Assembly (NCBI GenBank): GCA_040285855.1 | Contig: JAUFOQ010000004.1 | Location: forward strand, 806,001-870,000 | Direction: 5' to 3' | Length of the DNA stretch: 64,000 nt | From: Eukaryota sp. GEM-RC1 | Lineage: Eukaryota | Shown here: piece by piece, positions 1,517 through 53,801 of the stretch | Numbering within the stretch: the stretch's first letter is position 1 | Layout: each line of letters opens with the position of its first letter | Made by a program: the position numbers and the translations under genes | The notes under the pieces: model-generated | Seen by the model: the letters and a program-made list of their open reading frames with translations, nothing else | The model's database searches: none | Told to the model about the DNA's origin: nothing

Positions 1517-1635
1517 GTTAATCACATACTTGTTGATCACACTCGTTTTGTCAGTGTGATCACAATCACAAATGCTGTTTATTGGGAAACAAACAGTTGA
1601 TAATACTGTATTATACTGTGTTTTTTTTTGCCTTC

Positions 1636-11299: not shown

Positions 11300-11365
11300 C
11301 TAATAGAAAGACCACTAGCAAGCAGGGCATAACAAAATAATCCTAATACCAGAATCTCTCCTTCA

Positions 11366-18869: not shown

Positions 18870-19700
18870 CAATGCAAGAACAAATCCTGTATAATATAAA
18901 CACCCAACAAGATGGAAATTAGTAGGGTTGTTAAAAGATCAGGTCAAGGCCTGAAAATCCCAGGTCAGGTCAGGTCAAGGTCTCATACATCAGGTCAAAG
19001 GTCAGGTCAAGGTCAAACATTTGGCAGTTTATGTGTGAGTTTCTTGTTTTAAGTGATCAAAATTAGATCATCATACACAATTTACTCTTAGTATACACTA
19101 ATATTCAAGGAATTATTAGATTTGACTGCGTTTATACGGATTTTCGATAGTTAAAGAATATAGTAAATTGTAGATTTCATGTCAAAGGTCAGGTCAAGGT
19201 CAACTGATTCAGGTCAAAGGTCAGGTCAAGGTCCACAATAACAGGTCACGGGTCAGGTCAAGGTCATCAAATGAATTGACCTGACCTGTGACCTGTGACC
19301 TTTAACAACCCTAGTAATTAGCATTATCTAAGCGGCTAATTATGCTTGTACAATTAAATCCAGAGTATGACTTTTTTTGTAACAGTTATTGAATTATTCA
19401 CAAGATTAATTGTGATTTCAATGATTTCATTTGGGAGCAATTTTCCATTAGAGAATCCTGAAGAATATAAGTTATTCCAATAACTATAGGAACAATGAGC
19501 ATTTGACCCATTCCAAACACCACCACAACGATCAAAACAGACAAAAGAGGGCCATTCCTAGTCTTCACTTTATAGCCATTGCCTGTAAGAAGAGGAGTTT
19601 CTGAAAGAACACTGCTCCATATAGAATTTGCACCACTGTGGGTCACAATTGTTTCTCCATTTGAAATATTTACATTTTGTTTTTTTAATCAAGTGCATTC
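18870..19700 (-). pseudogene. SPRY-only pseudogene of the BTB-SPRY family (copy E), interrupted by a MITE
   Basis: ISNGETIVTHSGANSIWSSVLSETPLLTGNGYKV... and NEIIEITINLVNNSITVTKK. It has an internal deletion, frameshifts and no BTB part. Confidence 0.85.
18923..19313. mobile_element. hAT-type MITE with AGGTCA-rich subterminal repeats
   Basis: TIRs TAGGGTTGTTAAA / TTTAACAACCCTA, 8-bp TSD GAAATTAG / GTAATTAG (7/8 match), and many CAGGTCAAGGTC repeats. Confidence 0.9.
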
Positions 19701-20533: not shown

Positions 20534-21914
20534 CTATAACAACTCAAGAACAGAATTGTTCCAATGCAAACACCCAACAAGATGGTAGTTATCATTATTT
20601 AAAGAGCTAATTTCTCTTGTACAATTAAATACAGGGTCTGACTCTTTTGTAACAGTTATTGAATTATTCACAAGATTAATTGTGATTTCAATGATTTCAT
20701 TTGGGAGCCATTGTCCATTAGAGGACACTGAAGGACTATAGAAGTTATTCCTATGACTGCTAAAACAATGAGCATTTGGCTTATCCCAAACACCACCACT
20801 ACAATCAAACTTCTTTCTAGGAATAATTCCAAGCATTAGACTATTACGAACAGAAGAAGGAGTGCCATTCCTAGCCCTAACTTTATAGACATTTCCTGTA
20901 AGAAGAGGAGTTTCTGAAAGAACGTTTTTCCAGTCATCTGAACCACTGTGAGTAACAGTTTTTCCTCCATTTGAAATATTTAAATTTTGATGTTTAAGGC
21001 TAGAGGAAAAAGGCAAAACTGAAGATTCAACCGATTTTGCACATTCTTCTTGTTTTTCCACAATTTCCTTCAATTTAAATATTTCCTCATCTTTTCCCTA
21101 ATTAACTCAGTTGCTTCAACTAATTGTTCTTTCAACGTAAAATTTTCAGAAATTATTGTCTCAAAAAGTATCGGACGTAATTGTTTAAAGTGAAACTTCA
21201 TCAAAAGTTCTTCCAAATTTGAAATATTCTCAAGAGGATTTGAAAACAGCTCATCCCAATCTTTAAAGGTCAACAGGTTAACGTCAACAAGGGTCAGAAT
21301 TTCAGATAATTCTTCAGAATTTATAATTTCTGATTTAACTGAAGCCACAAGTGACTTTAAAAACCATTTGAAAGAACTTGAAGAAGTGCAAAATTCAAGT
21401 AAACTTTGGAGAAATACAAATGGGAAGACAAATTCAGATTTTTGACAAATGTTATCAACTTCTCTAATAAAATCTCCAACAAATAATAATCCTCTCAAGT
21501 CTTCTTGTTCAACGCACTTTGTCAAGAACTTGCTGCACCAGTCCCAATTAGTCATTTTTGAAGGGAGAATCTCCATAAGAGTAGTTTTAAGGTGATCACA
21601 TTGGAAGTAAGTAGCGAGATAGAAAACGTCATAGACGCTGGAAGAAGTGAGGTCGATGGTGTGACCAAAGAAGGAAGAGATGAAGGCGGAGAAAGACTCG
21701 GATGATATGGGCAAATGAGAAAAGTCCAAAGGATTCTCGAAGCGATCTCCAAACTCCATAAACCAAAGAGAGAAGAAGTACTGAGAGTTGGAAGCAAGGA
21801 CTGACTTAATGACAGAGAAGGACTCACCATTAAAGATAATGGTTTGATCATGGAGACTGGAGTGTTGGACTGGAGTGTAGAGAGAGTGTTGGGTGAGGTG
21901 GATGTGAGTGACAT
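20534..21914 (-). CDS. BTB - coiled coil - SPRY-like protein, copy B (frameshifts at about 21858 and 21093)
   Basis: Colinear with the other copies; the A run in GAA AAA GAT is one base short. Confidence 0.85.
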
Positions 21915-24900
21915 TGAAGGAGAGAATTGAATTGTTTGTTTTTGAATGGATTACTTTCACTATCACGAACACAAAGATTCAATGTATCTTGTTTCACATG
22001 GAAGGATTGATATTGTTTGGGATATTTTCTACTACAATGCAACGTATTAGCTATACATGTTTTTGTAGTTGCATGTTTAAAGCTGTATGTACACTAGAAT
22101 TTGATGTCATTAAGACAAAAACCCATCACTATCAAGTCCTAACACAGCTTTATCCTCAGGAAACGAATTCAATGTTAATAACACTCAGGAGACGAAAAAG
22201 TTGAATTGTTGAATTAACAGAACTTAATACAGTACAATGTATTTTGCTTATTAAGTGTCAACACTCCACATAACTGACAGTTCAACATCGGCAAAGCAGT
22301 CGCACTACACATCTATCATTTACAGAGGAAGAAGGAACAAGTTACGTGTGTGTAATACCTTGACATGAAGATTTGTCCGGTTCAGCTAAATGATTCTTCT
22401 TGTTCCTCACATTGGTTAGTGTAAATAGTATTAGTGTACCTGACTCTATCTATTGAGGATTATAGTGGCATTCCTGAATAGTGAACACATCAGAATGAAG
22501 TTCTGAGAGGCGCCAGCAGTGCCAAGTTATATCATAATATATCATGGAGTACAATTTAAAAGGAGCAAAAAGTATATAACTTGCAATTTGGAGGTACTCT
22601 TTTGCCTAATAAAATTACAAGCATTGGTATTAACCAGTACAACAAAAAACACAACCAAAAATTACCTAATTAGATTATTAATTTGGACGAGGTAGTGAAA
22701 CAAGACTTACGTATTTCAAATTGATACGCATAATTTACTTAAAAATTCTTCCATTAAGTGATTTTATTACCTTTGTAAATTGTTTGTGACGAATCAAAAT
22801 GTTTTTGAAGTACCAAAGATTCCCCAGAAACTGAAGATTATTCGAAAATTGGACAACAAACTGAGTTGAAAAAAATATTCTACAACAATCAGCGCATATC
22901 TCTCGCAATTCTGGTTGTTATTACGGTGTAGATCATTGTATTCTATTTGGCAATCTCTCTGCACCCTATTGATCAGGTTATAGGATATATTTTCGTATAT
23001 TATTGTCTATCTTCCGACCAAAGTTCTGGATAATTAAGTCTTCTGGTATTTCAATTTTGAATGTGTAGGTGTTAAGACAAGTACAGAATAGAAATAGGTG
23101 ACGAAGGACAGCTGAATGTACCTACTCGGATTGAAACTTTCCTGTAATGGGTGTGAGTTTCTTCAATTGAGCTCTACTAAAACACACCAAACTCTACTTC
23201 ACTCCAAATTTCTAAAAAAATTTCTTTTTGGAGTCGAACTGGAGTTTTATCAGAATTTTACGTGGAGTGAAATAAGTTTCTAAGTTCAGTATTGTACATA
23301 ATTTACAAAAAACGCCTATACCAAGGGGGAGTAACCGTTTTTGTAGTTACCATCGACCAAAAATCAAATTAACTTATCTATGCTTTCGCTTAAAAGGCGG
23401 AGAACTTAAAACTTTCGCCCAGCAAGACCTGTTCAACTTACCTACCGAATTGTGAACACAGTTATTGAATTTAATTCTGAAGCTCTTCTTTAGTAGTTGT
23501 TGAACTTATCATAAAAACAGATACAATGACACATCACGATGAATATCGAATTAAAAGTGTCTGTTTTAGTGTGAATCGAAGCACACTGAGTCATCGTTGT
23601 TTCGTTTATAGTTGGTATAAGTTACTAAAGCGTCAAATGAGGGGATTTGTATACAGACAAAATGTAATAAATTTAGTGTGAAATGAAGTCTACAAGTAGC
23701 TTGAGTTGGAGTGAAGTCAGGTTCAGTTGTAAAACTTATTGTTTGGAGTGACGTCGTGTAGGAGTTTCCAGATTTTGTCAGATTGTGACAGCACCATTTT
23801 TGTCACCATTTTGCTGTGGGAAAGTGTTGTCAATCACAGGTTTATGATCTCATAATATATTTTTGTCGCACGACAAAAATTGTCGTGTTTGTCTTTTGTA
23901 TATGTATTCATTTTGTATATTTAGTTGTATATTTAGGTGCCTCAAAATTGTTATCATTTGCCTTCAAGTTTCTCTACTATCAGGTAACTCCATATCAACC
24001 CTTGATTTCTTACTTTTAGAAAGTACTCTTCTTCTGGAGTTTCGTCAACGGGAGTACAGAGTTTTGCGTTATCAAGAAGCGGAGAGAGACGGTAGAAAAT
24101 GCTGTAATCAAAGAAGTAGGAGAATGTTGTGTGTACACTACTATACTTGCAAGTAGCATTGTCGTCATTCTGATTCGAAATTGTCATTGTAACAGTATTT
24201 CGTTGAATTTTTTGTATTGTATCAGATCAAAGTGGTTGTGTTTTTCAGGTATGGTTTCAGGTGCAGCAAGGACTGGGAGTGTCTGAATCAAATTTCTGTA
24301 CTTAAAAATGGCAGCAGATAATCTGTCTACATGTCTAAAATCTGTTAGCAGCAAAGTCCACAGAGGAAGCATCTTTAAAGGTCTTTAAAGGTGGGCTCCT
24401 ACTCTGCAATTTCAAATATTTGACAATGTTGAAATATTTGAATGTGACTTTCAAACAACTAAGTCGTTTAATGATGAACTGTACAGATGTACATACATAT
24501 AATATCCAAGTAGAAACTGCAATGAGCTCTGATGGTCATACGGCTCGTAAGACTGAAAAATTGTGGTGGTTAAATACAACTCAAAAAAGTGGTGAAGTCA
24601 TGATGATTCACATGGTTTTTATATACAACTCACGGAAAAGGAAACATTTCCGCAACATCAGATCTAAGTTCAACATTTGTGCACTGAGAATCTCAGTCTG
24701 AGATATCACAAACATGTTGCAGCATAACCTACATGGTCCAGCTGAGGGTTAGGGCCCTCTTGTGCACACTTGATAAGACCTTGCCAACATGCATGAAGAC
24801 ATCCACCAACCCAGATTAAAAAAAAGTCCCCAGGCTAGAAGTACCAGTATAAAATAACAGTATCTTCCAATCCAACCCACTTCAGAAACAGATAGATAAG

Positions 24901-25813: not shown

Positions 25814-28108
<2,295 letters not shown>

Positions 28109-28498: not shown

Positions 28499-28900
28499 AG
28501 TGTAATGAACTTTCAAGAAGTGTGATTTAGTATACAACCTGTATTTTAGTGTGTTTTTCAAATAACCATGTCACGCGCTATTTTAGCCGAACTTCTTACA
28601 TTACTCTGATCAAAAGGGTGAATACAAGTTGTACAAGACATTATTCCTTAAAGTGATTTTCTACGAAGAAAACGCTGATATCAGTTTTAATGGCAATGGA
28701 TGTTGCTTTAATGATATTGAGTTCTAGTTTTTGTTCTTATCTTACTGTTTGTTTTCCATAAACTTCGATGAAAAAAATTAAAGTGACAACTACAAGTTCA
28801 AATTGGACAACCCATTTCAGATAATCAAACGATTTCTTAGAAGAATAAATAAATACTTCTTAGTTCTAACAATTCTGAATGAATTCAAATCTCTCCTTCA

Positions 28901-30286
28901 ATGTCACTCACATCCACCTCTCCCAACACTCTCTCTACACTCCAGTCCAACACTCCAGTCTCCATGATCAAACCATTATCTTTAATGGTGAGTCCTTCTC
29001 TGTCATTAAGTCAGTCCTTGCTTCCAACTCTCAGTACTTCCTCTCTCTTTGGTTTATGGAGTTTGGAGATCGCTCCGAGAACCCTTTGGACTTCTCTCAT
29101 TTGCCCATATCATCCGAGTCTTTCTCCGCCTTCATCTCTTCCTTCTTTGGTAACTCCACTCCCTTCTTTGACCTCACTTCTTCCAACGTCTATGACGTTT
29201 TCTACCTGGCCACTTACTTCCAAATGTGATCATCTTAAAACTATTCTTATGGAGATTCTCCCTTCCAAAATGACCGATTGGTACTGGTGCAAGTTCTTGA
29301 CAAAGTGCATTGAACAAGAAGACTTGAGAGGATTAAAATTTGTTGGAGATTTTCTTAATGAAGTTGAAAATATTGGTCAAAAATCTGAATTTGTCTTCCC
29401 ATTTGTCTTTCTCCAAAGTTTACTTGAATTTTGCACTTCTTCAAGTTCTTTCAAATGGTTTTTAAATTCACTTGTGACTTCAGTTAAATCAGAAACTGTA
29501 AATTCTGAAGAATTATCTGAAATTCTGACCCTTGTTGACGTCAACCTGTTGACTTTTAAAAACTGGGATGAGCTGTTTTTACATCCTCTTCAGAATATTT
29601 CAAATTTGGAAGAAGTTTTGATGAAGTTCCACTTTAAACAATTACGTCCAATATTTTTCGAGTCAATAATTTCTGAAAATTTGACGTTAAAAGAACAATT
29701 AGTTGAAGCAACTGAATTAATTAAGGAAAAAGATGATGAAATATTTAAATTGAAGGAAGCTGTTGAAAAACAAGTTGAATGTGTAAAACCTGTTGAATCT
29801 TCAGTTTTGAGTTTTTCTTCCAGTCTTAAGCATCAAAATTTAAATATTTCAAATGGAGGAAAAACTGTTACTCGCAATGGCTCAAATCAAACTTGGCAAC
29901 ATGTTCTTTCAGAAACTCCTCTTCTTACAGGAAATGTCTATAAAGTTAGGGCTAGGAATGTCAATCCTTCGTCTTCTTCTGATGGTATTATGATTGGAAT
30001 TATTCCTAGAAAAGATTTTGATTGTAGTGGTGTTTACTCAAAGCCAAATGCTCATTGTTTTTACAGTCATAGGAATAACTTCTATCCGTCAGGAACCCCT
30101 AATGGAAAATGGAACCCAAATGAAATCATTGAAATCACAATTAATCTTGTGAATAATTCAATAACTGTTACAAAAGAGTCAGACCCTGGATTTAATTGTA
30201 CAAGAGAAATTCGTTCTTTAGATAATGATAACTACCATCTTGTTGGGTGTTTGGTTTATCAAAATTCTGTTCTTGAATTGTTATAG
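28901..30286 (+). CDS. BTB - coiled coil - SPRY-like protein, copy C
   Basis: The 461-aa ORF reads the BTB out of frame: the shared shift at about 28957 is cancelled by an extra A at about 29224 (ttccaaatgt vs ttccaatgt). The BTB frame is the 28879-29229 ORF. Confidence 0.85.
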   Translation: MSLTSTSPNTLSTLQSNTPVSMIKPLSLMVSPSLSLSQSLLPTLSTSSLFGLWSLEIAPRTLWTSLICPYHPSLSPPSSLPSLVTPLPSLTSLLPTSMTFSTWPLTSKCDHLKTILMEILPSKMTDWYWCKFLTKCIEQEDLRGLKFVGDFLNEVENIGQKSEFVFPFVFLQSLLEFCTSSSSFKWFLNSLVTSVKSETVNSEELSEILTLVDVNLLTFKNWDELFLHPLQNISNLEEVLMKFHFKQLRPIFFESIISENLTLKEQLVEATELIKEKDDEIFKLKEAVEKQVECVKPVESSVLSFSSSLKHQNLNISNGGKTVTRNGSNQTWQHVLSETPLLTGNVYKVRARNVNPSSSSDGIMIGIIPRKDFDCSGVYSKPNAHCFYSHRNNFYPSGTPNGKWNPNEIIEITINLVNNSITVTKESDPGFNCTREIRSLDNDNYHLVGCLVYQNSVLELL

Positions 30287-30509
30287 CTTAATAAACTTTA
30301 TTTATTATTTCAGTCATATTTGTTTACGACTAAGTTCTTTTTAATCAATAAATGATTATCACTGCATTAAACACCACTTCGTGAAGTACACACTACTACT
30401 TTACTAGTAGTAAAGCATACCAAAAAGGGTCACTGTTAAGGGATTTATGGCATTACTAAGTTCTGACAGTGAGTTCCAGTTTAAAGAAAAGTGTACGGTT
30501 TTCCTAGTA

Positions 30510-31234
30510 CAGTCAGGTTGCTATAATTTCAAACTTATCCGGACCTTGAAATTACAGGAACCTTGAATTTATAGGATCTCTATATCATCTCAACTACTTT
30601 CACTCATTATACGCTCTGTAGTCTCTGTATAACCTAATAAAACACCAATTCTTCATTGTATTGCTTAGTCCTTCACATGAATCGCACTGATTCGATAAGT
30701 GTTCATTTCTCGTTGATCTTGTCGTCCGCAAGGGTGTCAATGATGTCCTTTTCCGTGGACTTCATCAACGGAACGTGTAGAGCTGAGTTTTGCATGTTTC
30801 AGACCACGTTTAGCAAGATTTGCGGAAATGAGTAACCAACAGTACTACCACAACAACGAAGAAGACGCTTGGAGTTTCATAGTTAAGTATTTTGGTATGT
30901 AAGTGAGTGGAAGAAAACCACCAGTTGGAACGCAGGCAAACGCGAAAACACGATTTATGACACACAAAGTAACATCAAACTGACTCTACCAATAATCAGC
31001 ATAGCTAGAATGCATTTAGATAGCTATCAGAACACTAAAGGCTCGAAAACAGGAAATTCCATGCAGACTCATATCGGCGTTCCAGAAGATCCACTTAAGT
31101 AGTTCTAGTAGCTGATAGCAGTTATATTAGAGAAAAGTTGATGTTAGAGGTATTCGGAAGGGTGTAACATTTTGGGACCTTGAAATTAGAGGATCTTTGA
31201 AATTATGGGGGTTGAAATTATAGGAACCTGACTG
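30510..31234. mobile_element. pogo/Tigger-type non-autonomous element
   Basis: TIRs CAGTCAGGTT(G/C)CTATAATTTCAA, flanked by TA on both sides (30508-9 and 31235-6), with subterminal CCTTGAAATTA repeats. Confidence 0.88.
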
Positions 31235-31348
31235 TACTCATGACAATCCTTTTCATTTATATATCAAGAAGTGTTATAACTACAGTCTATTGTCATAAGA
31301 AGAACACATTTACAACCAGTACAGATTTCTTGCCAGATAGTAAAACTA

Positions 31349-33018
31349 CTAATTAGAGACAATCGGAAAATACGAATCGTTTCTACAATTACCAGCATGT
31401 CCTTTCCTAGCTGCTCGCGGTTGATAAGGAGCACCGCAACACCACCAATAGTCATGACCACAACTTAAGCAATGTAAATGAAGACACCCTCCCTCTTTTA
31501 CAGTAGGACTATTGCAAGAAGGACAAGGGGAAGTGTTGTTCCTAATGAAACTGACAGAACTATCGTCATGGTCTCGCCACTGCTCACAGGTTTGTCCAAC
31601 ATGCCAAGGTACTTTGTCATGAGCACACATATCATGTCGACAGTGATTACATCTGACCTTGCGATCATCTGCACTGTTGATGAAGAAACCATTTCCACAA
31701 TCTTGATGGGCACACCATCGGAAAGTTGGTTGGGAATTTAGATATTGTACAGTTAGACCCTTTTCAAAATCTTGGTAAATAGCAGTTGAAGAAGCAAATC
31801 TTTGAACATCGTTGGAGTGGAGAATCTCGTCACAATTAGCATGAGGACATTTAATAGGTTCAATTGCATTAAGAACAATAACTTTCTGGTCAATCCATCT
31901 AGTAATACAACTGTTGCAGACCAATCTAGAGTGCTTACACTTAGAAGTAATTGGGATAGAACATTCGCTATGAGTCATTCCACCATAACAAACTGAGCAT
32001 TCAGTTTCTGAATCAACTGAGTTATGGTCACCCATTTCAGTGAACTTGGGAATAACCAAATACTGCTTGGGACCAATTCTTAGGACGGATTTGTTAACAA
32101 TTCGAAGAGCTTCAGTTTCAGTTGCCAGTTTGAAGTTAGCCATGTGGTAACCTTTCAAGAATATCCCAGAAAAGGAAGTAACTCTGAAGTTCTGTTGACG
32201 GAGATGCTCAAAGATTCTAGTAACTTCAGCTCCAGAAGTGAGAGGAAATACTGAGATGAAGGTTCGCTTAATGTCTTCAACAGGACCAAAATTGGCATTC
32301 ACAGGTTTGATACCAAGGGTTTTGTGGCAAATTACATGAGGACTCTTATTTAGACATTTGGCGATTTCATTAGCAGTAATTGGTGGCTTTCCTTCACTCT
32401 GTAACTTCTTTGCATAGTTCATCATTCTAGGTCTGTTCAAAATGGTATTGTAGGGGACGAAACCTCTGTTCGTGGCAGCTTCTTGCTGTAGTTGAGGGTA
32501 TAAAGGATAATATGCGTCAGAAAAGTAGAACTCAACTTGACCAGCGATGTAATCCGATCTACTAGCGTTTCCGTAGAGATGATCAGACATTGTATATGGG
32601 GAAAAAGGAACAGTAAGATCGAAAGCATTGGTCTTTTTGGTTCCAGAGGGGGGATACAAGGGGTTAAATACTGGGCGTGATCCGCGGAAAAACCTGAGTT
32701 CAAGTGTGGAACGAGGTAATTCTAAGGAGGTGGAAGGACATGCGCCATTACGAGATATCATAGCTTCAACAGGGCGGCCAGAAGGTGGTATAGCAATTAC
32801 TTTGATGTCTTCTGATCCTTGACCCCAGTCTGGTGGACAGAAGAGGCGAACAGAGACAGAGTTTTTGATTCATTACGTCTTACTTGAGTGGTTCTTGGGA
32901 AGGAGTTACGATTGACGGGAGCAACAGGGGCCTACAACAAGCAATTGAATATAGAACATACATTAGATCCAGTACGATTACGTTTTGAGGTAGAGGGGTT
33001 AGTTGAGCGACGGTGCAT
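31349..33018 (-). CDS. La motif-RRM-RBR E3 ubiquitin ligase, copy 1 (zinc-finger region degenerate)
   Basis: Exon 1 is 33018-32962, then a 30-nt intron and a 1-nt A-run shortfall at about 32864. La motif GQVEFYFSD..GFVP, RRM, RING1 (CSVC..CKH..CNSC..CPHANC), IBR (WCAHQDCG..CNHC..C..WH..C) and RING2 (CPSC..KEGGCLH..C). Confidence 0.85.
32932..32961 (-). other. 30-nt GT-AG intron
   Basis: GTATGT...TTGTAG with an in-frame TAG; same position as the introns in the two paralogues. Confidence 0.8.
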
Positions 33019-35557
33019 TGGAAGAAATGTAGGAAAGCAAAATTGGGAAAAATTTTAACCTTCATTGTCAAATTTGTTCAGATCACTGTTCAATATACAC
33101 TGACACTTACATGAATTTTGATGTACTCTATTACAGGCCCATTTGCGGCTACATTTCCCGCACCAAGTTGGTCTGACAAACATAATATCTTCATGATCAA
33201 ACATCATCAATAGAGAAGAGACGGGCCCAGTCCTCGTCAAACCCCTTAACTTTAATCACAGTATATACACAGTTGTTACGTTGTAAGCCACAGTATTCCA
33301 AATCTTACATCTGGAGCTACTATTTGCGAAAATCTTTTGTACTGTTTGAATGCAAGATACAAAGGCGTGGAGTTTGTACCATAACGTGATGAATTGGTTG
33401 TTGAGAACATAGAGTCGCTGTGTTGTAACAAGTTTGTCCTCATAACAGCAGTCAACGCTAACACGTGGAAAAACCGACTCTAAACACGTCTTAGTAGGTG
33501 TTAGGTGATTACATGACCAGAATTGTTCCTAACTAAAAACTACCACTAGCAGTAGAAGTTGAAGTACAAAAAAGTAAAAAAAAAACTCAAATATGTTGAC
33601 TTGTCTTTCATTTCACAAACATATGCCAACAACTGTTCAGTGGCGTCAAATGAATATGAGGATACAACCATCTTGCTGTTAAGCCGGACTATCAGAAGCC
33701 TTTCTCTGCACAAACACCGTGCGTTTTGGGACTGTTCCATAATTGAATACTCATCAACATAAAAGAAGACATAAATGATGAGGATGACGTGGTAGACTTT
33801 TCTTTCAAATAGTTTGTTGTTCGTCAGCAATGCTTATTGCAGAATTTCTTCATTGAAACTTATGTAGTTTTGTCGATTCACAATAGATGTATCATATCTA
33901 TTTAGATATCTTTCCATCATACTGTAGATTGCGAATTCAAGTTTGATCTGTCATCACAAGATTTTCAGAGTATACATCAATTCTATTTCATAAATATTTT
34001 TATTGGTTATTGTTTCAGATATTTTAGATATTTTTGACCATAAAGCACCCTTTTTTATTTTAGAAGATGTTCATCGATTGATGCTTGATGTATCGTCAGG
34101 GTCCCAATACAAGCAATCAAAAATGCTATATACACATACCATTTACTATGCTTGTATTGGAAACTTGCTTTGTATTAGGGTCCTTTGAGTCTAACTTTTG
34201 TATTATGAAATTTTGAACATTACAAGATCAATAACAGTGAAATGGATACTTAATAACGTCAATCAGTTATCTTTAAAATACACTGATCAATCCTGATAGA
34301 CAGATAGATCAATCAGACCAAAATAAACATCAAAATATGACGCTTCTACAATTTCTTGGTCAAACAAGGCTTTCATTAATTTCGTAAATTATCGACCGCC
34401 GTTAAATCAAACGCTTCCCTAAAGCTAGTGTCTCTAGAACAAATATGTATTTGCCGTAATAATTGAGACACTTCAGTGTATCATTGTGTCCTAGATGTTT
34501 AGCTATTCTTGCGTTATAGACTTGTCCGTCAAGTGATCGAGTCCTTCTGCAAATTATGATGGCTGAGGTCATTTGTAACTAGTAAATGAAATCTACGAAT
34601 AACTCGGATACGGCTTTTTGTGGTTCTATTTTTAGAGATCAGTATTTTTCAAAAGAATTCTGTGAGTCTATATTGTGAAACAATACAAGCATACCATCTA
34701 CAAAGCTTGTATGAGGAACTCGACGATATATGAAGACAAAAAGATATTAACTGTATTCATTGTTTCCAAACCAAGTGTGTCATAAAATATGGAAAACAAG
34801 ATTATTCTTTGACAAGAAAAAATTTCAGAACAAGAAATAGTATATACCTGATAAAAACATGTTTCGATTGAACGTGTCCATTTGTTAATGATGTCATTGT
34901 CATTTACATATATTCATTAACTCAAAAAACCGCAGTAGTTTTTATATCCAAGTTGTCCAAGTTGTCCTGAAAGTTGTCCAAGATGTGTGTGATATGAGTT
35001 GTGAGCAATTGAAGAATGCATTCCCCAATCGTTCACTGAGACAGAACAAGTGAGATACCCAATTGAAAGTGCTCAACTAGAAGTTGCTGATAATTTCTTC
35101 AGTGTGAGACGACAAAACTATTGAATTTTCTCTTAGAAAAAAAAGTTACCGTGGTCCTAAGGATAAATACAGCAAAAAATTCGGCCTCCAAAATTAGACG
35201 AATATTACGTTAACTGAGACCAAAAAGCGAAAATGTCCTCCAAAAAAAATTCGTACGAGGCACATAATTTCATGACAACCTGCAGTATAGTTGTTTGACA
35301 TCTGATAGGTGGGGTGTGAGTTCTTTTACGAAAAGTTTTCATATTAATCAGTAGGCATAGTCTTTTCGTGTGTTATTGCTGTGAATGTGTAATGTCTTCA
35401 AATCAAATAACACATAAATGATTCTTGTGATGTACAAATAAGTCTTGTACGGAGTGTAAAAGTACAGTACGCCATTATTCCAATAAACATTATACAAATA
35501 TACATAAAAAATAGTCAATAGATTTATACAAACACAGTCAACATATGGTTCAACGAA

Positions 35558-37285
35558 TCAAGCAGAATTTCTTGGAAATAGACCAGTATGAGGACAACTT
35601 TCAGTATGTCCGTTCTTTTCTTTTCGAAGGTCAAAAGTGGCACTACAACACCACCAATAATCATGATGACAACCAGCGCAATGCATATGAAGGCATCCTC
35701 CATCTTTGATAGTGGGACTGGCACAATGGGGACAAGGAGAACTAATTTTCCCTATGAGGGCCAAGGACTCATCATCATTATCTCGCCACTGTGTACATGT
35801 TTGACCGGAGTGCCATGGTACCTTATCTTCAGAACACATATCATGGTGACAAGTATCACATCTTACTCTAGGATCACTGGAAGGGTGGATGAAGAAGCCA
35901 TTTCCACAATCTGCATGAGGACACCATCGAAAATCAGGATCAACTTGGAGACATTGAATGGTTAAGCCGGTCTCGAAATTTAGATAGATTTCGTACGTGG
36001 AAGCAAATCTTTGAACATCATTGGAATGGAGAATCTCATCACAATTAGCGTGGAGACACTCAATAGGTCTCATTGCATTGTACACCATAACATTCTCATC
36101 AATCCATCTAGCAATACAACTGTTACAGACCTTTCTAGAGTGCTTACAGTTGGAAGTAATTGGGGTAGAGCATTCGTCATGAGTCATTTCACAGTAGCAA
36201 ACAGAACATTCAATTTCTGAATCAACTGAATTATGGTCACCCGTTTCCGTAAACTTGGGAATAACCAAGTACTGTTTCGCACCAATTCTTAACGTTGACT
36301 TGTTAACAATTCGAAGAGCTTCAGTTTCAGTTGCCAGTTTGATATTAGCCACATGAAAACCTAAACCTTTCAAGAATATCCCAGAAAAGGAAGTAACTCT
36401 GAAATTTTGTTGACGGAGATGTTCAAAGATTTCAATTACTTCAGCTCCAGAAGTGAGAGGAAACACTGAGATGAAGGTCCGTTTAATGTCTTCAACAGGA
36501 CCAAAGTCAGTGTTGACAGGTTTGATCCCACGATCTTTGTCGCAAATAACGTGTGGGATTTTCTTGAGACATTTAAACACTTCTACTTCTGTAATGGGTG
36601 GCTTTCCTTGACTATGTAGGCGCTTTGCATAGGCTTCCATTCTAGGTTTGTTCAAGACGGTGTTGTAGGAGACGAAACCGCTGTTCGAGACAGCTTCTTG
36701 CTGTAGTTGAGGGTATAATGGATAGTATGCGTCAGTAAAGTAGAAACCAACTTGAGCCGCAATGTACTCTGATCTACGAGCGTTACCGTGAAGATGATCA
36801 CACATTGTGTAGGAGGAGACAGGAGCAGTAAGATCCAAAACATTCCAGTTTCGGGCTTTAGATGGCGGATAAAGCGGATTGAATGTCAGCCGAGATCCAC
36901 GGTAAAATTTAAGTTCAGTTTTGATACGAGGAAGCTCAATGGAAGTGGAAAGAACGACGGCGTTTCGAGAAATCGTAGCTCTAACCTGAGGGCCAGAGTG
37001 TGGTATAGCAACAACAGTAATTTCCCCTGTGTCTTTCGCCCAATCAGGAGGACAAAAGATACGAAAAGAGGGAGATTCGTTGGTTTGAGAATCTCGGCTG
37101 TCAGAGGAGTGACGGAAGTGACAGGAGGCTCCTCTTGTACACGAGTCGTCGTCCCTGCAGATATTACTTTTCAACTTGTGACGTTTTACATGAATAAATG
37201 AACACTACGATAAGGAAACAATGACGAAACATTCGTTTGAACCCTTGTTACAGCGATTAGCAAGATAATGGGTACAAATAGGCAT
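35558..37285 (-). CDS. 2xCCCH-La motif-RRM-RBR E3 ubiquitin ligase, copy 2
   Basis: Exon 1 MPICTHYLANRCNKGSN splices to CSFIH, giving C-x7-C-x5-C-x3-H. Second finger CRDDDSCTRGASCHFRH, then La, RRM and an intact RBR with GGCLH. Confidence 0.88.
37205..37234 (-). other. 30-nt intron with non-canonical GA donor (GAATGT...TAG)
   Basis: Homologous in position, length and sequence to the GTATGT intron of copy 3; its removal completes the CCCH finger. Confidence 0.7.
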
Positions 37286-39197
37286 GGCGAGAAGATTTGA
37301 ATTGTAAAATTGAATTTTTTTTAAATCATTTGATTTGAATTGCACACAGAAATTCAATAGTCCCATAAGTATATGACTCACGACAGGGTCTATTTACTTG
37401 ACTCCACTCCAACTGACTCTCACTTATGTGTTAACTAAGCATGTCATTTCCATCATGATTCTTTTAACACGTTGCTTGTCCTTGAGCAACTGAGACACTT
37501 GAAAGATGTGTATTTTGCATCCTCCAGACAGTGGTTCAAACCATTTTTCTGAAAGTAGATCCAAATCCCTGCTTGTTAGGAGTTATTGCCGCATATGTTT
37601 CTTGTTTACATTGTCAACAAAACACCAATTCGAATACACCGATACAGTCAGTTTCCTTCTTGAATATTGTAAAATAACACCTAAGTTCTGTAATAAGTAG
37701 GGTTCGCAAACACACTGTGTGGCAAATTCACTGTCCATGTGACACACGTGTGATCAAATTGATTGTATGATATTTTTTGTAGTAAACTATTTTTCCTTAA
37801 TAGAAGTCTTATGAATGAAGAAATCAGAGGTATCAATAGTTGCATTGCATATCGTGAAACGATTTTGAAAGGTTGTACAAAGTAAATATGCAATTTAGGG
37901 ATAAACTTTTGACTTTTTGAGTTAAAAAGCATGCAGAGTAACGCACACAACAAAAACGTCTAACCAAACACATAGTGTGGCTGTGTGTAGCGTACCTTAC
38001 ATTTTCCATTTGTATATTTCTCTTTTCCACAATTTGGTTTCTCTTTTTTTCAATAAAGAATAAGATACAAATGGCAAGCTACAGCCTGTTTTTTGTCTTA
38101 ACATTGAAAATGGAGAAAGAATTTTTTAATGTTTGAATTTACTGTACTTCATTGTATTCTATATCCAAACTGTTATATAATTGTGTTCTTTTATCGTGTA
38201 AATACTAATTTAACGTCACTATCTCCACTTCTATATATAGATATACTCCTTCATTATCTCCATCCATCAAAGAATTTGAAACTTTTATAATAGCTGACTT
38301 TGAGGACATATATCGAGTAAAAAATACTTTTCAAGTCAATGAATGCGATTATTGGCACTGAATACATAGAAGCTAAACAACGAGTCCTTGGTTGTGCTGC
38401 ACTGTTGGTATTTTCGAAGTGTGTGAAAGTTCAAATCTGTTCACAATTTTGAGGGACCAACACATCGGAATCCACGTTTACACACAATATACACTATTAT
38501 GACATGCTGAAATTGCGTTTCATGTGTTTGATCGTTCTAGTTGTTTGGTGTTTTCGTAAACAGAATTCTTCTTCTAGATCTGGCGCAACAATATATAGCT
38601 CATTTCCTCTTTGCAGATGTACTTATGATACCCATTCAGAATGTCGCTGACTTCTGATACTGTAAATTTCATGTTTGTAAAAAAATCGACAATTTTTGAC
38701 AATTCGAAGCAAATTTATGACGAATACTTACGTGTTATGTCAGCAATAAAGAACAATCAAGTTCACATTCCAAGAGTAGTTGGTTTTAGTTTACTTTGAC
38801 ACTTTCAAAACGGAAAAGACAGTGTCATATTGTTTCACACCTTCTCTTTTGTTGATACCTTGTTGCCCGTTTTAAAATTAACATAGAAATACTCTCCTTT
38901 TTTTCTTTGGTTTTATCTTTTGGGTTTATGCTAATGCTAATGTACGTCATAAAATGTATGTGCAGCACCCGTATCAGGCTGTTAATCCGTTCGATTTCGG
39001 AATTCTTGGTGAAACGATTAGCTTCTGTTAGGACTGTAAGAAGAATAGGACGGCCAATTTTGGCATGTCACATTCAATCTAATTAAAAGCCACAGAAAAG
39101 TTGAAATCTTTTGAAATTCATTCGTTGTAGCTCACAAACAGGATCAAAAATACATAAATATTGAATTAAATTTACACAAATAAAAAAGTAGAAACAA

Positions 39198-40936
39198 CTA
39201 AGTAGAAACATTTGGATAATAACTATCGTTAACACAACTTGCAGAATGCCCCTTCTTATCTGCTCGAGGGACAAATGGATCACGACAACACCACCAATAG
39301 TCATGCCCACAAGCCAAGCAATGCATATGAAGACATCCTCCATTTCTGATAGTGGGACAGATACAACGAGGGCACGGAGATGTATGCTTCTTAATGTAAT
39401 CCAGTGACTTATTGTTATTTCGAAATTCGGAACAGGTTTGACCAGAATGCCAAGGCACCCTATCACGAGCACACATATCATGTCGACAGTGATCGCATCT
39501 GACCTTACGGTCACTGGAACTGTTCATGAAGAACCCATTTCCACAATCCTTATGAGCACACCATCGGAAAGTTGGTTGGGAATTGAGAAATTGTATTGCC
39601 AACCCCTTTTCGAAATCTTGGTAAATGGCAAACGAAGAAGCAAATCTTTGAACATCGTTGGAGTGGAGAATCTCGTCACAATTGGCATGAGGACATTTAA
39701 TAGGTTCAATTGCATTAAGAACAATAACTTTCTCATCAATCCATCGTGCAATACAACTGTTGCAGACCAATCTAGAGTGCTTACATTTAGAAGTAATTGG
39801 GGTAGAACATTCGCCATGAGTCATACTTTCACAACAAACAGAGCATTCAGTTTCTGAATCAACTGAGTTATGGTCACCCTTTTCAGTGAACTTGGGAATA
39901 ACCAAATACTGCTTGGCACCAATTCTTAACGTAGACTTGTTAACAATTCGAAGAGCTTCAGTTTCAGTTGCCAGTTTGATGTTAGCCACATGAAAACCTT
40001 TGAAGAATATCCCAGAAAAGAGGTAACTCTGAAATTTTGTTTTCGGAGATGCTCAAAGATTTCAATTACTTCAGCTCCTGAAGTTAGAGGGAACACTGAG
40101 ATGAATGTCCGCTTAATGTCTTCAACAGGACCAAAATCGGAATTCACAGGTTTGATACCACGGGTTTTGTCACAAATAACATGAGGACTCTTATTTAGAC
40201 ATTTAAAGACTTCTTCTTCTGTGATGGGCGGCTTTCCTTGACTGTGTTCACGCTCTTTATAGGCTTTCATTCTAGGTCTGTTCAAGATGGTGTTGTAGGG
40301 GACGAAACCTCTGTTCGAGGCAGCTTCTTGCTGTAGTTGAGGGTATAAAGGATAATAAGCGTCAGTAAAGTAGAAGCCAACTTGACCAGCAATGTATTCC
40401 GATCGGCGAGAGTTGCCATACAAATGATCAGACATTGTGTACGTGGAGAAAGGAGCAGCAAGATCTAAAACATTGCATTTTCCGGTTTTAGATCGGTGAT
40501 AAAACGGATTGAAAGTGAGATGGGATCCCCGGTAGAATTTAAGTTCAGTAATAGTATGAGGAAGCTCAATGGAAGTGGAAAGAACAGCAGCGTTTCGAGA
40601 TATCGTTGCACTAACCCGACGGCCAGACTGTGGTATAGCAACAACAGTAACTTCTTCAGATCCTTTAGCCCAATCAGGAGGACAAAAGATGCGAATCGAA
40701 GTAGGTGCGTTGGTGTTACGATCTTGCTGTGGACTAATTGCACTGTCGGAGGAGTGACGGAAAGGACATGATGCTCCACTTCTACATGAACTATCGAACC
40801 TGCAGATGTTGCTTGTCAATTCATGTCGTTTTACATGAGCAAATTTGCACTATGATAAGAAAACAACGGCGATACATACACTTGACCCCTTATTGCAGTG
40901 ATCATCCAGGTAGTGGGTACAAAGACGAGTTGGCAT
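39198..40936 (-). CDS. 2xCCCH-La motif-RRM-RBR E3 ubiquitin ligase, copy 3
   Basis: Exon 1 MPTRLCTHYLDDHCNKGSS plus CKFAH, second finger CRFDSSCRSGASCPFRH. One T is missing from a run at about 40018, joining the 39926-40819 and 39198-39989 ORFs. Confidence 0.88.
40850..40879 (-). other. 30-nt GT-AG intron
   Basis: GTATGTATCG...TTATCATAG; splicing creates a canonical C-x7-C-x5-C-x3-H finger. Confidence 0.9.
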
Positions 40937-43207: not shown

Positions 43208-43621
43208 GTTTAACAGAAACATTCCCAAACATTCATGCTGTTTCAATGTCAAAATTGTTCGTTGGACCAGATTTATTTGGGTTTTCCATTTTGTTTTTCA
43301 ATTTTCGTGTTTTTGTAGTCTTTTTTATTTTTTAATTTCTTCATGGGATTCATGTTAGCCATGGTTGCCGGATTGTTCCTTTTCCACGTATTTCTTGCCT
43401 TTTCTAATCAGACTTCTTGGGAATTCTTTAAAAGAAATAGAATAACCTATTTAAGAGAACTTCCGTCATCAATTAGACCTTTTGATAAGGGAATATTCAA
43501 AAATTTTGTAGAATTCATCATGCTAGCATTCAACAACAAAACATATTGGCTAACAAACTATGGTGACCTCAAAAAAGGCAATCAACGATCTTCAATGATA
43601 GGTTTCTTTTGGAAGAAGTAA
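43208..43621 (+). pseudogene. 3' part of a DHHC palmitoyltransferase-like gene (catalytic DHHC-CRD not seen)
   Basis: TM helix, then FHVFLAFSNQTSWE and RPFDKG.FKNF, the typical TTxE and PaCCT-like motifs of DHHC enzymes. The upstream region lacks a recognisable DHHC domain. Confidence 0.65.
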
Positions 43622-43642
43622 GTATCAATCAATCAAAACTGA

Positions 43643-44311
43643 TTACGATCTCACAGTTTTTTTCAATGAACTTGCCTTTTTCAGTGCAGATAGCCCTGGT
43701 CTTCTTGTCTTTCCTAGACCTTCTTCTTCTTCAAAACTGATCTCTGGAACTTCTTCTGAGGGTTGTTGCTCTTGAAGTCTTTGGTTTTCATTCATTAATA
43801 TTTTAATTTTTTCTTTCTTCTCATTAAGTAATAAACAAAACTTCCTATACATTTCGTCTTCAAAATCTTTCATTTCATTTGAGATTTTCTCCTTAGTTTG
43901 TTTCATGGAAACAACATCACTTTGGATAGCTGTGAGTTGCTCATTCTTAGAGGACAGGTCTGCTTCAACATCAAGAAGTTGAGATGAACAAGACTTGAAC
44001 ATAGAAAAGAGAGATGAAAATGGAGATTCAGAACTTTTAGAAAGAGATAGGTCGATCTTACACCATAGAGTATTCACAAGGAAGTGGTAAGAAAGGGAGA
44101 CCGATGACTTAGATTGGGAAAGAGAGATGTAGGCGGTATCAGAAGGACGAATGAGTAGTTTACAGAGACCTTTGAAGAGATGATCTTGAAGAACACCAGA
44201 ATATTCATAACAACCAAAAGATGAAACAAGAACAATAGAACAGCTTGTGGGATCACCAAGGATATTTAGAGCCAGCTCGATATCGTCAGCAGTGGAGATG
44301 GTACCAAACAT
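43643..44311 (-). CDS. XRCC4: XRCC4-like NHEJ protein, 222 aa
   Basis: Beta-rich head plus coiled coil containing EDEMYRKFCLLLNEKKEKIKIL, which matches the XRCC4 ligase IV-binding segment (LYKRFILVLNEKK.KI). Confidence 0.75.
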   Translation of the reverse strand: MFGTISTADDIELALNILGDPTSCSIVLVSSFGCYEYSGVLQDHLFKGLCKLLIRPSDTAYISLSQSKSSVSLSYHFLVNTLWCKIDLSLSKSSESPFSSLFSMFKSCSSQLLDVEADLSSKNEQLTAIQSDVVSMKQTKEKISNEMKDFEDEMYRKFCLLLNEKKEKIKILMNENQRLQEQQPSEEVPEISFEEEEGLGKTRRPGLSALKKASSLKKTVRS

Positions 44312-44918
44312 TTTACATCCCTAACAGTTTCTCCCCCTAAAGCTAGAACACAAACTCACATTGGCTAGATCAAACCTAAAGTGTCCATCGTCCCTGATTC
44401 TCTATCCATGTATGAGACTTCTTGAGTTGCATTGGTTTCTCTCTTGGTGACGTTACGAGATCCAATCATTCATATGATTCCAGACATCATTTTAAGAATC
44501 GGAAGAAAGATCTCTGATATCCTAAGGACATCTATTAAGTGATGAGAGATATCTACTAGGTTTCTATAAAAATGATGTTCTACTCTACCTTCCACTTTTT
44601 TAATTCATTGTGTAGCACTTCTAAAGAGTAATTCTCTAGAAGCTTTGTTTATCGCCATATTCAATTGGTCAGGGAGATTGATTAAGTAAATTACCAATGA
44701 CCATCCACTTAACCAACCAATGCCACTGATATTACAAATATATTCTCTTGATGATTGTGGCAGTAAACTGTTCTAACATTTTGATTTTGTTAGACTTTTT
44801 CTCACGAATTTTCATCATTGGAACTAAAACAATGTCTGATTTAGGAGTGAGTCCCTTCTTTTTTATTCTTTAGTTGATGTGTTAATGCTTCCCAGAAGAA
44901 CCTGAATTCTCTGTTAGT

Positions 44919-46426: not shown

Positions 46427-47494
46427 GTTAAAAGAGTTTATTTGCAACAATAAATTAATACATACTAATTCAGAAAATGAAAGAAGTTAAATTCTCCACA
46501 TCAACACGAGAATTGTCCCTATACAACTTCGAATAAATGGAACATAAATACTTGGGAATGCTTCTATAAAGAGCGAACATAATTCGATTAATCCATACAG
46601 CGCTATTAAACACCTTGCCATTAGAACGACATAAAGAACTAAAATCACTGAAAAACTTTGAACCGGCTGGACCAATATTACCAAAAATTGAAATGGCAAA
46701 TGGAACAAATGAAAACTTAGAATATAGATTTTCATTAAGCTTCTGCAAAGCATCCGCATAATTTGAACACTTTCGTTGTTCAGCCTTTTCCAGATGACCA
46801 TTCGAATCATTCAATATGGAGTCTTGGTAGACTTTTGCAAACGGGTTAACTGTAGTAAAATCAACCACAACTTGAGATGAATCCAGGAAAGGAGCAATGA
46901 AGTCACCACGTCGAAAATCAAACACGTTATTGTCACTATAATGTTTCAGAAGAGGTTCAATTTTACAACTATAATTGTAGGATTTGAACATTTCTTAAGT
47001 AACGTCACGAACAGCGTTATGTAGAACAGATCGAAATTGCAAAAATTTCTTGCAACTAACAACATGACGAAATGTGGCTGTAGATCGGTTATCGCAAACA
47101 CAGATTGAATTATTTAGCAAACCACTAGGGAATAAACCTAAACGAAGACGCATATTTTACTTCCAAGCATCATTGTTCAAATGTAAACCAAAAGGTCTAG
47201 GTTGTTGAGTGATGAAGCTAGAACATTGTTGAATGTCACATAAAAAAAGCTGCAAAGACGGGATTATCAATCTTAGTCACACTAAGTCTTTTACTAAAAT
47301 CCAAGTCTTCCAACCCAAGTAATGTAGCATTCTGTAACTTAACTACAGCAAGAGGTAGAAATTCAATTGACCGATCAGGAATAGATGAAACACTTTTCGG
47401 GAAACTTTTGTTCCAAACTTCAATAGGCAAACCTTGAACTAAGTCCTCCAAAGAGTTGAATAAAGCATAAGAGCAGTCTACAACTAAATACAAC
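46427..47494 (-). mobile_element. 5'-truncated CRE retrotransposon with candidate 11-bp TSD
   Basis: RLE motifs (RRGDF, DFTTV, EQRKCSNY, PFAISIFG); flanked by TTTATTGTACA at 46416-46426 and 47495-47505. Confidence 0.88.
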
Positions 47495-48800: not shown

Positions 48801-48872
48801 GTGGGGTTGTTGGTATCATAAACAGCTACTAATATGTGAAAAACGAACAAAGTCTTCATTCAAACTCCTTCA

Positions 48873-50242
48873 ATGTCACTCACATCCACTTCACCCAACA
48901 CTCTCTCTACACTACAGTCCAACACTGATCTCCATGATCAAACCATTATCTTCAATGATGAGTCCTTCTCTGTCATTAAGTCAGTCCTTGCTTCCAACTC
49001 TCAGTACTTCTTCTCTCTTTGGTTTATGGAGTTTGGAGATCGCTTCGAGAACCCTTTGGACTTCTCTCATTTGCCCATATCATCCGAGTCTTTCTCCGCC
49101 TTCATCTCGTCCTTCTTTGGTCACTCCATTGACCTCACTTCCTCCAACGTCTATGACGTTTTCTACCTCGCCACTTATTTCCAATGTGATCATCTTAAAA
49201 CTACTCTTATGGAGATTCTTCCTTCCAAAATGACCAATTGGGACTGGTGCAACAAGTTCTTGACAAAGTGCATTGAACAAGAAGACTTGAGAGGATTAAA
49301 ATTTGTTGGAGATTTTCTTAACGAAATTGAAAATATTTGTCAAAAATCTGAATTTGTCTTCCCATTTGTCTTTCTCCAAAGCTTACTTCAATTTTGCACT
49401 TCTTCAAGTTCTTTCAAATGGTTTTTAAATTCACTTGTGGCTTCAGTTAAATCAGAAACTATAAATTCTGAAGAATTATCTAAAATTCTGACCCTTGTTG
49501 ACGTTAACCTGTTGACTTTTAAAGACTGGGATGAGCTGTTTTTAAATCCTCTTGAGAGTATTTCAAATTTGGAAGAAGTTTTGATGAAGTTTCACTTTAA
49601 GCAATTACGTCCGATATTTTTTGAGTCAATAATTTCTGAAAATTTGACCTTGAAAGAACAATTAGTTCAAGCAACTGAATTAATTAAGGAAAAGATGAGG
49701 AAATATTTAAATTGAAGGAAGTTGTTGAAAAACAAGAAGAATGTGCAAAACCTGATGAATCTTCAGTTTTGAGTTTTTCTTCTAGTCTTAAACATCAAAA
49801 TTTAAATATTTCAAATGAAGGAAAATCTGTTACTCAAAATGGCTCAGGCTGGTCCAATGTTCTTTCAGAAACTCCTCTTCTTACAGGAAATGTCTATAAA
49901 GTTAGGGCTAGGTATGTCAATCCAGCTTCTCAGACTAATGGTCTAATGATTGGAATTATTCCTAGAAAAGAGTTTGATAGGAGCGCGCCACATACTGCAA
50001 TTTCAAATGAATATTGCTTTTGTAATTGGTACAGTACCTTCCGTAATTGTCCATCTAATGGTGCTTGGACCTCAAATGAAATTATTGAAATCACAATTAA
50101 TCTTGTGAATAATTCAATAACTGTTACAAAAGAGTCAGACCCTGGATTTAATTGTACAAAAAAAATTCGCTCTTTAGATAATGATAACTACCATCTTGTT
50201 GGGTGTTTGTTTTATCAAAATTCTGTTCTTGAATTGTTGTAG
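48873..50242 (+). CDS. BTB - coiled coil - SPRY-like protein, copy D (only copy whose ATG is in frame with the BTB)
   Basis: MSLTSTSPNTLSTLQSNTDLHDQTIIF... is continuous; a one-base A-run shortfall at about 49692 splits off the SPRY part. Confidence 0.88.
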
Positions 50243-52555: not shown

Positions 52556-53650
52556 TTAAAAAACGCCTTTTATTTACTCTTACAAATACAAACTATCATC
52601 AATATTAACAAATGAGATACCAATACCTCTATATCATCTCAAATTCATGTCTCAATGCAAAGAGACGGTTCAAAATTGAATCAAAATACCTAAACAATGC
52701 TTTGAAAAGGGAAAACGACAACCTTCCTCTCCAGTAACTTTCATTAAAATTCTTTCCATACTGCTTACACAATTTGCCAAAATCTGTGAGAAATTGTTGA
52801 CCGAAGCAACCAAACGTACCATAAAGAGAAATAGCAAAAGGATGAAAAACAAAAGGATTGTGTCGGCGAGAATTCATCTTGGAAATTAATTCGCCATAAC
52901 GATCAAATTTTTTCCTTTCAGCAGTTTCAAGAGCTGAATAGTTTTCGTCTAAAATTTTGTTAACAGAAGTTGAGTTACAGGGATCAACCGTAGTAAAGTC
53001 CATAATTATTTCTTGAGAGGACAACCAAGGACCAATCAAATCACCTCTACTCTTATCCCTCATAATTGGAGTCAGACAAAGTATTTAATACTGGTTCGAT
53101 TTTCCCATGAAAACCATTGCTCTTAAACAATTCTAAACATTGATCACGTAAACTGTTGTGAATAATTGATCTTAAATGAATAAACTTATGACAGTTGACC
53201 ACACGATGGAAAGAGGCTAAAGAAGAACCACACACACAAGTAGACTTTTGCAGGAGACCAACAGGCCATAAACCCAACCTCAAACGAATGTTGATAAGCC
53301 ATTCATGATCTTTTAAGTTGAAACTATATCTTTGAGGATATCGAGTAATCAAAGTAGAAGCCTCGTCACTAGAAATGTCTTTCAAAAAAGCACAAAAAGC
53401 GGGACTCTCGATTTTAGCCAAGCTAATACAATTGTTAAAGTCCAAGCTTTCATGATAGTTGATAAATTGCTTCTGCAATTTACGGACACATAGTGGTAAG
53501 GAGAACAAACATCTTTGAGGGATCTTAGTAACAGATATGGGGAAAGGAGACGCCCATATATCAGCATCAAGGTTCTCAATCTGATCTTGCAGACTAGTTA
53601 ACCATGAACACGGGGAAGATGAGAGAAAACGATGATCAAGCCAAAGATCA
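52556..53650 (-). mobile_element. 5'-truncated CRE retrotransposon (third subfamily)
   Basis: CVCG..HRVVNC, IHNSLRD, RGDLI, DFTTVD, ERKKFDRY and PFAISLYG motifs with frameshifts, plus a 3' UTR shared with 1272-1516. Confidence 0.9.
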
Positions 53651-53801
53651 GTAAAATAAATATCGTAGCTATATATTTAAGCAAATGTTTGGTATTTTCT
53701 TTAAATATTTTTTACCAGGCCCTGCATGTACAGTACAATGTAGTACTGTATTGTTGAAGGGATTTGATTGAAGTTCTGTTTATTTCCAACAGCATCAACT
53801 T

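Follow-up and report, generated by a model that had tools for sequence, protein, structure and literature searches.

RING1-IBR-RING2 (RBR) ubiquitin ligases work by a relay in which RING1 binds the conjugating enzyme charged with ubiquitin (E2~ubiquitin), and ubiquitin passes to a cysteine of RING2 and from there to the substrate (PMC7458406). They are counted among the RNA-binding ligase types (PMC5707401); the Helicase/Plant I subfamily, described as ancient and present in both unikonts and bikonts, carries RNA-binding domains together with the RBR (PMC2904391), and RNF14 is reported to resolve RNA-protein crosslinks (PMC10783637). The locus analysed here is a tandem array of three minus-strand paralogues at 31349..40936 of a 64-kb window (the whole stretch of 64,000 nucleotides, positions 806,001 to 870,000 of contig JAUFOQ010000004.1) from Eukaryota sp. 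GEM-RC1, and each paralogue encodes a La motif, an RRM and RING1-IBR-RING2.

Like the Helicase/Plant I RBRs (DEAH11/12-like), whose RNA-binding domains are RRM, KH and a DEAH helicase, the array proteins fuse domains of RNA-binding type to a complete RBR. Unlike them, they have no helicase or KH domain, bear a La motif and a CBM48-like domain, and possess a RING1-IBR part that the best trees put with stand-alone RBRs, although a place among helicase RBRs is not rejected; no DEAH helicase was found in the array copies, nor in the window by tblastn of the helicase relative P0170. The La motif followed by RRM1, with the same fold, is shared with La, LARP7, LARP6 and LARP4, whereas, unlike in genuine La and LARP7, the pocket residues D33, F35 and F55 are replaced, a CBM48-like domain comes before the module and a ligase after it. 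Ubiquitination directed at RNA-associated proteins, in the array a prediction only, would be common to RNF14 and to RING-type RNA-binding ligases such as MKRN, MEX3 and Roquin, the latter working without a catalytic cysteine relay. RNF14 itself presumably bears an RWD domain and lacks a La module.

The first-pass annotation of this DNA, made from the sequence alone, had contrasted the array with known RNA-binding ligases that use simple RINGs. This contrast was overstated, as Helicase/Plant I RBRs are described as binding RNA (PMC2904391), and 19 of the 120 helicase relatives listed bear both RRM_1 and IBR. Its remark that no La-RBR fusion was known fared better: a fusion of a La motif with an RBR ligase was not found in the literature searched (most subscription journals lay outside the search), nor outside one protist lineage, although RNA-binding RBRs themselves are known. 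Fungal CCCH-RRM-RBR proteins are reportedly mentioned in a 2007 review of the RBR family, an unconfirmed precedent. Because RNA-binding helicase RBRs are already known, the La-RBR fusion is a real but lineage-restricted variant of RNA-directed RBR ligases, and the three-domain CBM48-like/La/RRM module is the most interesting part of the finding.

Domain architecture of the array

The ligase part is readily recognised, with Pfam matches to IBR and RING2 above cut-off in all three copies (IBR, IBR_1, IBR_2), the order RING1-IBR-RING2, and a predicted model (predicted local distance difference test, pLDDT, 82-97) that Foldseek matches to ARIH1 (E 3.5e-11), ARIH2 and HOIP. The RBR occupies 31385..32002 in copy 1 (IBR 31717-31586, RING2 31525-31385), 35594..36211 in copy 2 (IBR 35926-35795, RING2 35734-35594) and 39234..39848 in copy 3 (IBR 39563-39432, RING2 39374-39234), all on the minus strand. 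The RING2 motif GGCLH (31492-31478, 35701-35687 and 39341-39327) is present in all three copies and in P0008, an orthologue from Eukaryota sp. TZLM3-RCL; its cysteine aligns with that of parkin GGCMH, with histidine at +2. In domain order and in the Cys-x-His site, at 28-39% identity, the array resembles ARIH1, HOIP, parkin and the stand-alone fungal and protist RBRs that are its best sequence matches. The earlier description of three paralogues, each joining a La module to a complete RBR with GGC-x-H, is thus borne out.

The La motif of each single copy is weak (Pfam E 2e-5, 0.06 and 4e-4, all under the Pfam cut-off), and no Pfam RRM match was obtained, the RRM being recognised by its fold instead. 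A profile of six module sequences matches human La at E 3e-8. A 273-residue module model, built from 10 sequences, reached a pLDDT of 84 and a predicted template-modelling score (pTM) of 0.79; with it, Foldseek places human La LaM-RRM1 at ranks 1-9 (best E 7e-6), and VIA-align superimposes it on LARP7 with a Z of 12.1 (root-mean-square deviation, rmsd, 4.5; 156 aligned). Taken alone, the La motif gives Z 10.0 (rmsd 2.6, 83 aligned) and the RRM Z 11.0 (rmsd 2.5, 80 aligned). Modelling thus shows a La motif followed by RRM1, each with its fold, and answers the earlier reservation that the middle region might not fold in this way.

A CBM48/AMPK-beta-like beta-sandwich of ~85 residues, absent from the first-pass annotation, precedes the La motif, and in the model the CBM48-like, La and RRM domains form a single rigid body of about 270 residues. 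This unit lies at 32042..32851 in copy 1 (CBM48-like 32851-32615, La motif 32560-32303, RRM 32266-32042) and at 36251..37066 in copy 2, whose sequence was modelled for the fold. The evidence for the beta-sandwich is weak but concordant: AMPK1_CBM is matched by Pfam at E 2e-4 in the relative P0171, two of ten alignment rows match at E <5, Foldseek returns AMPK beta subunits (probability 0.97-0.99, E about 0.03), and the Atlas neighbours, a lead only, are AMPK1_CBM/CBM_48 clusters at 0.75-0.77. The ESM Atlas gave no usable match for P0008. The full-length model has a pTM of 0.41, so that the module and the RBR are not predicted to touch each other in any fixed way.

Copy 1 (31349..33018) consists of a basic first exon, the CBM48-like domain, La motif, RRM and RING1-IBR-RING2; in copy 2 (35558..37285, 548 open codons past its intron) and copy 3 (39198..40936, split over two open reading frames) the same domains follow two CCCH fingers. 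No fourth copy was found in the window by tblastn. Each copy has a 30-nt phase-0 intron at a common position, after identical G-S-N/S codons. In copy 1 this intron (32932..32961, predicted) is GT-AG, and the exons around it encode a basic stretch without fingers. In copy 3 the GT-AG intron (40850..40879) lies within CCCH finger 1, which its removal completes, and the NCBI model P0005 has the identical splice; the tandem pattern C-x5-8-C-x5-C-x3-H is present twice in this copy (via P0005/P0004). The equivalent in copy 2 (37205..37234) has a non-canonical GA donor, and finger 1 of that copy requires a GA-AG splice. The second fingers are at 37109..37159 in copy 2 (C-x5-C-x5-C-x3-H) and 40754..40804 in copy 3. 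The earlier claim that copies 2 and 3 both carry two fingers, the first seen only after removing a 30-nt intron, therefore stands for copy 3, while in copy 2 it meets the GA donor. This possible GA-AG intron, where both paralogues use GT-AG, may be a mutation, an error or a case of non-canonical splicing; counting GT against GA donors over the whole window gave no signal. By sliding identity, copy 3 is nearer to copy 2 at its 5' end and nearer to copy 1 in RING1-IBR, which suggests that the window copies are mosaic. Small cysteine-rich reading frames, unannotated, lie between copies 1 and 2 (33060-33680, minus strand).

Distribution and history of the fusion

The named relatives are labelled Eukaryota sp. 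GEM-RC1, TZLM3-RCL and TZLM1-RC, which are treated as Skoliomonas, free-living metamonads (PMC11316075). A search with copy 2 against 1.84 billion cluster representatives gave 3710 matches at E <=0.001, and the best 150 of the 3710 were examined. Among these, P0008 is the only match from another species that spans both module and RBR (33% identity, residues 38-543); it is intact, with La above the Pfam cut-off, GGCLH, and a W-W-C-C second zinc site in RING2. A further 145 of the 150 are RBR only, and no La, RRM or CCCH was detected in any of the 53 longer RBR matches scanned, which sets the array apart from the stand-alone RBRs. The La-RBR fusion is thus conserved in two species. At least four further paralogous records exist beyond the window copies.

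The same unit occurs on a second kind of protein. Giant proteins with a DEAH helicase, RING1, IBR, PARP-like and WWE domains (P0169, P0170-P0173, P0009) form a widespread family, expanded in bdelloid rotifers, oomycetes and metamonads, with a PARP-like domain bearing an HGT motif at the place where RING2 would be expected; no paper describing these proteins was found. Members from three Skoliomonas-lineage genomes share the CBM48-like/La/RRM unit with the array proteins and start with it: P0170-P0173 have one or more modules, a DEAH helicase, RING1, IBR and a PARP-like domain, to which P0170-P0172 add two WWE domains, and P0009 has five tandem modules ahead of a truncated DEAH helicase. Unlike the array proteins, they have the PARP-like domain in place of RING2, and their units form a separate clade. 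As side observations, P0009 shows a weak match to the La helix-turn-helix of kinetoplastid Dicer (E 0.002), and the predicted model of P0173 opens with a DnaQ-like 3'-5' exonuclease domain, a long way ahead of the module, possibly a gene-model fusion.

A profile of the module matched 13 of 287 collected proteins, all from the Skoliomonas lineage or the window, and none of the helicase-family relatives from rotifers, oomycetes, other metamonads or Hydra. In metagenome contigs, the profile recognised only one of 450 pattern matches, an ordinary La-related gene (L001, with canonical D33/F35/F55 and no RBR), and in viral contigs none of 130. Among the searches made, the La-RBR architecture thus appears lineage-restricted. 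In a module tree of 17 rows, which carries long-branch warnings, the La-RBR modules form one clade, split from the helicase modules at 100/100. In RING1-IBR trees (a quick one of 76 rows and one of 41 rows), the copies from the window are placed with stand-alone RBRs, chosen as nearest matches, and not with helicase RBRs (Shimodaira-Hasegawa-like approximate likelihood ratio test, SH-aLRT, 92 and 99); an approximately unbiased (AU) test of the window copies with helicase RBRs was borderline and did not reject that placement (p 0.053). P0008 stands apart from the window copies in the larger tree and groups with them at 94 in the smaller. Origin of the array by internal deletion of a helicase RBR is therefore disfavoured, with the borderline AU value in mind, and it seems likelier that one module was joined to two different RBR lineages before the species split. 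Three stand-alone RBR relatives are themselves fused to other domains, two to WWE and one to CBM21 (P0040, P0044, P0139), indicating that this RBR type acquires many targeting domains.

RNA binding and competing explanations

The best explanation, to which we give about an even chance on sequence and models, is that the array genes encode RNA-tethered ubiquitin ligases, predicted to dock on single-stranded RNA and to ubiquitinate protein held there. In La, the residues Q20, Y23, Y24, D33, F35 and F55 form the RNA-binding pocket and are all reported as essential for specific RNA binding (PMC7928032); D33, F35 and F55 are assigned to the final nucleotide and Q20 with Y23 to the penultimate U, and the last phosphate is contacted by Y24 together with N56 and R57 (PMC2430598). 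All five La-RBR rows retain Q20, F23, Y24 and R57. Across La-RBR and helicase rows together, nine of ten retain Q20 and nine of ten an aromatic at 23; the occurrence of the unit on helicases, an independent RNA context, was counted in favour of RNA binding. In addition, the La+RRM part is basic in all six La-RBR rows (isoelectric point, pI, 8.7-9.8). Since half of the La pocket (D33, F35, F55) is lost, recognition of 3'-UUU-OH by the array modules is unlikely, and contact with internal U or with the RNA backbone is plausible.

In the proposed mechanism, the CBM48-like/La/RRM unit would bind RNA through the retained half-pocket, using the penultimate-U and phosphate contacts, its basic surface would add further contact, and the 3'-OH end would not be used. 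The CCCH pair would supply extra RNA contacts in copies 2 and 3, and the CBM48-like domain would be structural. RING1 would then take E2~ubiquitin, and ubiquitin would move to the RING2 cysteine and on to a neighbouring ribonucleoprotein (RNP) protein, with RNA serving as the address for the ligase; the RNP may in the end be remodelled or degraded, whether for quality control or for defence. If RNA binding holds, recognition of RNA would be coupled through a La module to the RING-HECT hybrid type of ubiquitin relay, here in an anaerobe that is free-living and deep-branching. The array and its relatives also show one La module, half of its pocket rebuilt and joined in a single fold to a CBM48-like domain, on a ligase as well as on giant helicase-PARP-WWE proteins. 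At 500-570 residues, the proteins are small enough for in vitro work on whether RNA serves an RBR as address or as activator; the literature searched does not establish this for the known helicase RBRs. The lineage is narrow, and its sequence error-prone.

Several observations weigh against an RNA-tethered ligase. D33, F35 and F55 are replaced in all five La-RBR rows (D33 by Y, F35 by Q, F55 by K/R), and the RRM lacks what we take to be the usual RNP aromatics. CCCH fingers are lacking in copy 1 and in P0008. On the ligase side, the second zinc site of RING2 reads W-W-C-C instead of C-W-x-C, where 107 of 108 matched relatives have cysteine first and none has W-W-C-C, and the IBR carries Asp at one zinc position; the model pLDDT at these sites is 82-91. 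As read, copies 1 and 3 contain frame breaks, and the remaining copy 2 has the GA donor. Finally, the helicase-borne units are mostly acidic, with at least six of nine parsed below pI 6.4, and R57 is lost in all five helicase rows; a role common to both unit types may therefore not be RNA binding.

The alternative that survives best, though a doubtful one, takes up this last point: the unit would be a protein-docking scaffold that has lost RNA binding and recruits short RBR and giant helicases alike to one shared protein partner, and this partner would direct the ligase. The lost half-pocket and the mostly acidic helicase-borne units are consistent with it, as are the folding of the unit as one rigid body and its invariant residues (S41, L46, F55, Y67, G181, FPL 203-205 and E210 in A4 alignment numbering), which fall outside the La pocket. 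Against it, Q20 and an aromatic at 23 are each kept in nine of ten rows, all La-RBR rows are basic, a CCCH pair was added in two copies, and divergent pockets occur in LARP4, which is described as RNA-related (PMC7928032).

Decay of the array is unlikely. It would mean that most copies are degenerating duplicates in which the frame breaks and the GA donor are genuine, with no more than one copy yielding a protein, or with truncated RNA-binding and ligase halves produced instead. Copy 1 is one base short near 32866, at an A run (32862..32870), and copy 3 near 40020, inside the RRM and beside a T run (40014..40024); the first-pass annotation mentioned neither these breaks nor the GA donor of copy 2. 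Decay would also fit the paralogue P0004, elsewhere on the contig, which shares the break of copy 3 and differs from P0005 at 6 of 326 residues, and the damaged or partial state of P0003 (no GGCLH), P0006 (ending after the RRM) and P0007 (no RING2 site). On the other hand, comparable single-base breaks recur in the same window, with two at C runs less than 90 nt apart in the Walker A region of the CDC48/p97 gene (near 26495 and 26580) and one in each of the four BTB paralogues, two of them at the identical residue, so the breaks in the array are probably assembly errors. Of the seven indels in coding sequence that separate copies 2 and 3, six have a length divisible by three, and the ratio of nonsynonymous to synonymous substitution (dN/dS) is 0.04-0.54 in all 18 pairwise domain comparisons, including those on either side of the break in copy 3. 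The array domains are under purifying selection, and the orthologue P0008 is intact.

Comparably unlikely is a broader scenario, in which the lineage would possess an RNA-sensing immune or surveillance system based on ubiquitin and ADP-ribose. The CBM48-like+La+RRM receptor would sit on two effectors, the giant helicase-PARP-like-WWE proteins without RING2 and the short ligases with RING2, which would come together on one foreign or damaged RNA, the short ligase giving the catalytic cysteine. More improbable still is that the La module autoinhibits the RBR and that RNA binding releases it, which would make the array an RNA-triggered antiviral or anti-retroelement sensor, the strong form of what the first-pass annotation had proposed. 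The recent tandem expansion, with its further paralogous records, is consistent with such a sensor, and the combination of helicase, PARP-like and WWE domains in the partner architecture resembles that of defence proteins. RBRs are often autoinhibited by flanking domains, but not universally so (PMC7458406), and the full-length model has no fixed packing of module on RBR; pairwise dN/dS gave no sign of positive selection, and the nearby retroelements are background. The RNA-triggered and antiviral readings of the array are unsupported so far.

Least probable of all is that the ligase is guided by its CBM48-like domain to an alpha-glucan such as glycogen, where glucan-bound proteins or the glucan itself would be ubiquitinated: the AMPK1_CBM match in P0171, the AMPK beta matches and the Atlas lead point that way, but alignment A4 has no tryptophan at what we take to be the two sugar-stacking positions of a CBM48/AMPK-beta domain, and the domain is always accompanied by La and RRM and is found on RNA helicases. 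HOIL-1 offers a precedent, with glucan ubiquitination reported in vitro (PMC9527308).

Neighbourhood of the array

The first-pass annotation had also read a retroelement-rich region as a sign of defence, which the window does not bear out. Pfam confirms one reverse transcriptase gene, and tblastn adds further pieces resembling long interspersed nuclear elements; a non-LTR (long terminal repeat) retrotransposon is represented by this gene with an upstream open reading frame, plus several 3' fragments (1537-5310, 46470-47261, 52629-53676, 56279-56587). No retroelement piece lies within 14 kb to the left or 5 kb to the right of the array. Since repeats make up 28-55% of the genomes in this lineage (PMC11316075, Table 1) and the pieces are distant, the surroundings of the array provide no evidence of a defence against retroelements. 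Directly downstream of copy 1 is a 733-bp element resembling a miniature inverted-repeat transposable element (30506-31238), whose terminal inverted repeats measure 27 nt (96%) and which has TA at each end.

The CDC48/p97 gene (25814-28108) lies about 3 kb from the array, and its adjacency to ubiquitin ligases is probably due to chance. A dispersed BTB family is found at 11347-12742, 20534-21978, 28879-30286 and 48840-50242, with fragments at 3-98 and 19314-19688. Its proteins are about 90% identical, with one frame break each, and have a coiled coil and a C-terminal domain without a Pfam match, which is presumably SPRY-like. The intervals 43319-44320, 54294-55070, 58918-60033 and 61132-62091 hold a DHHC palmitoyltransferase end, an XRCC4-like gene, a phosphomannomutase, family B DNA polymerase pieces and an NmrA-like gene.

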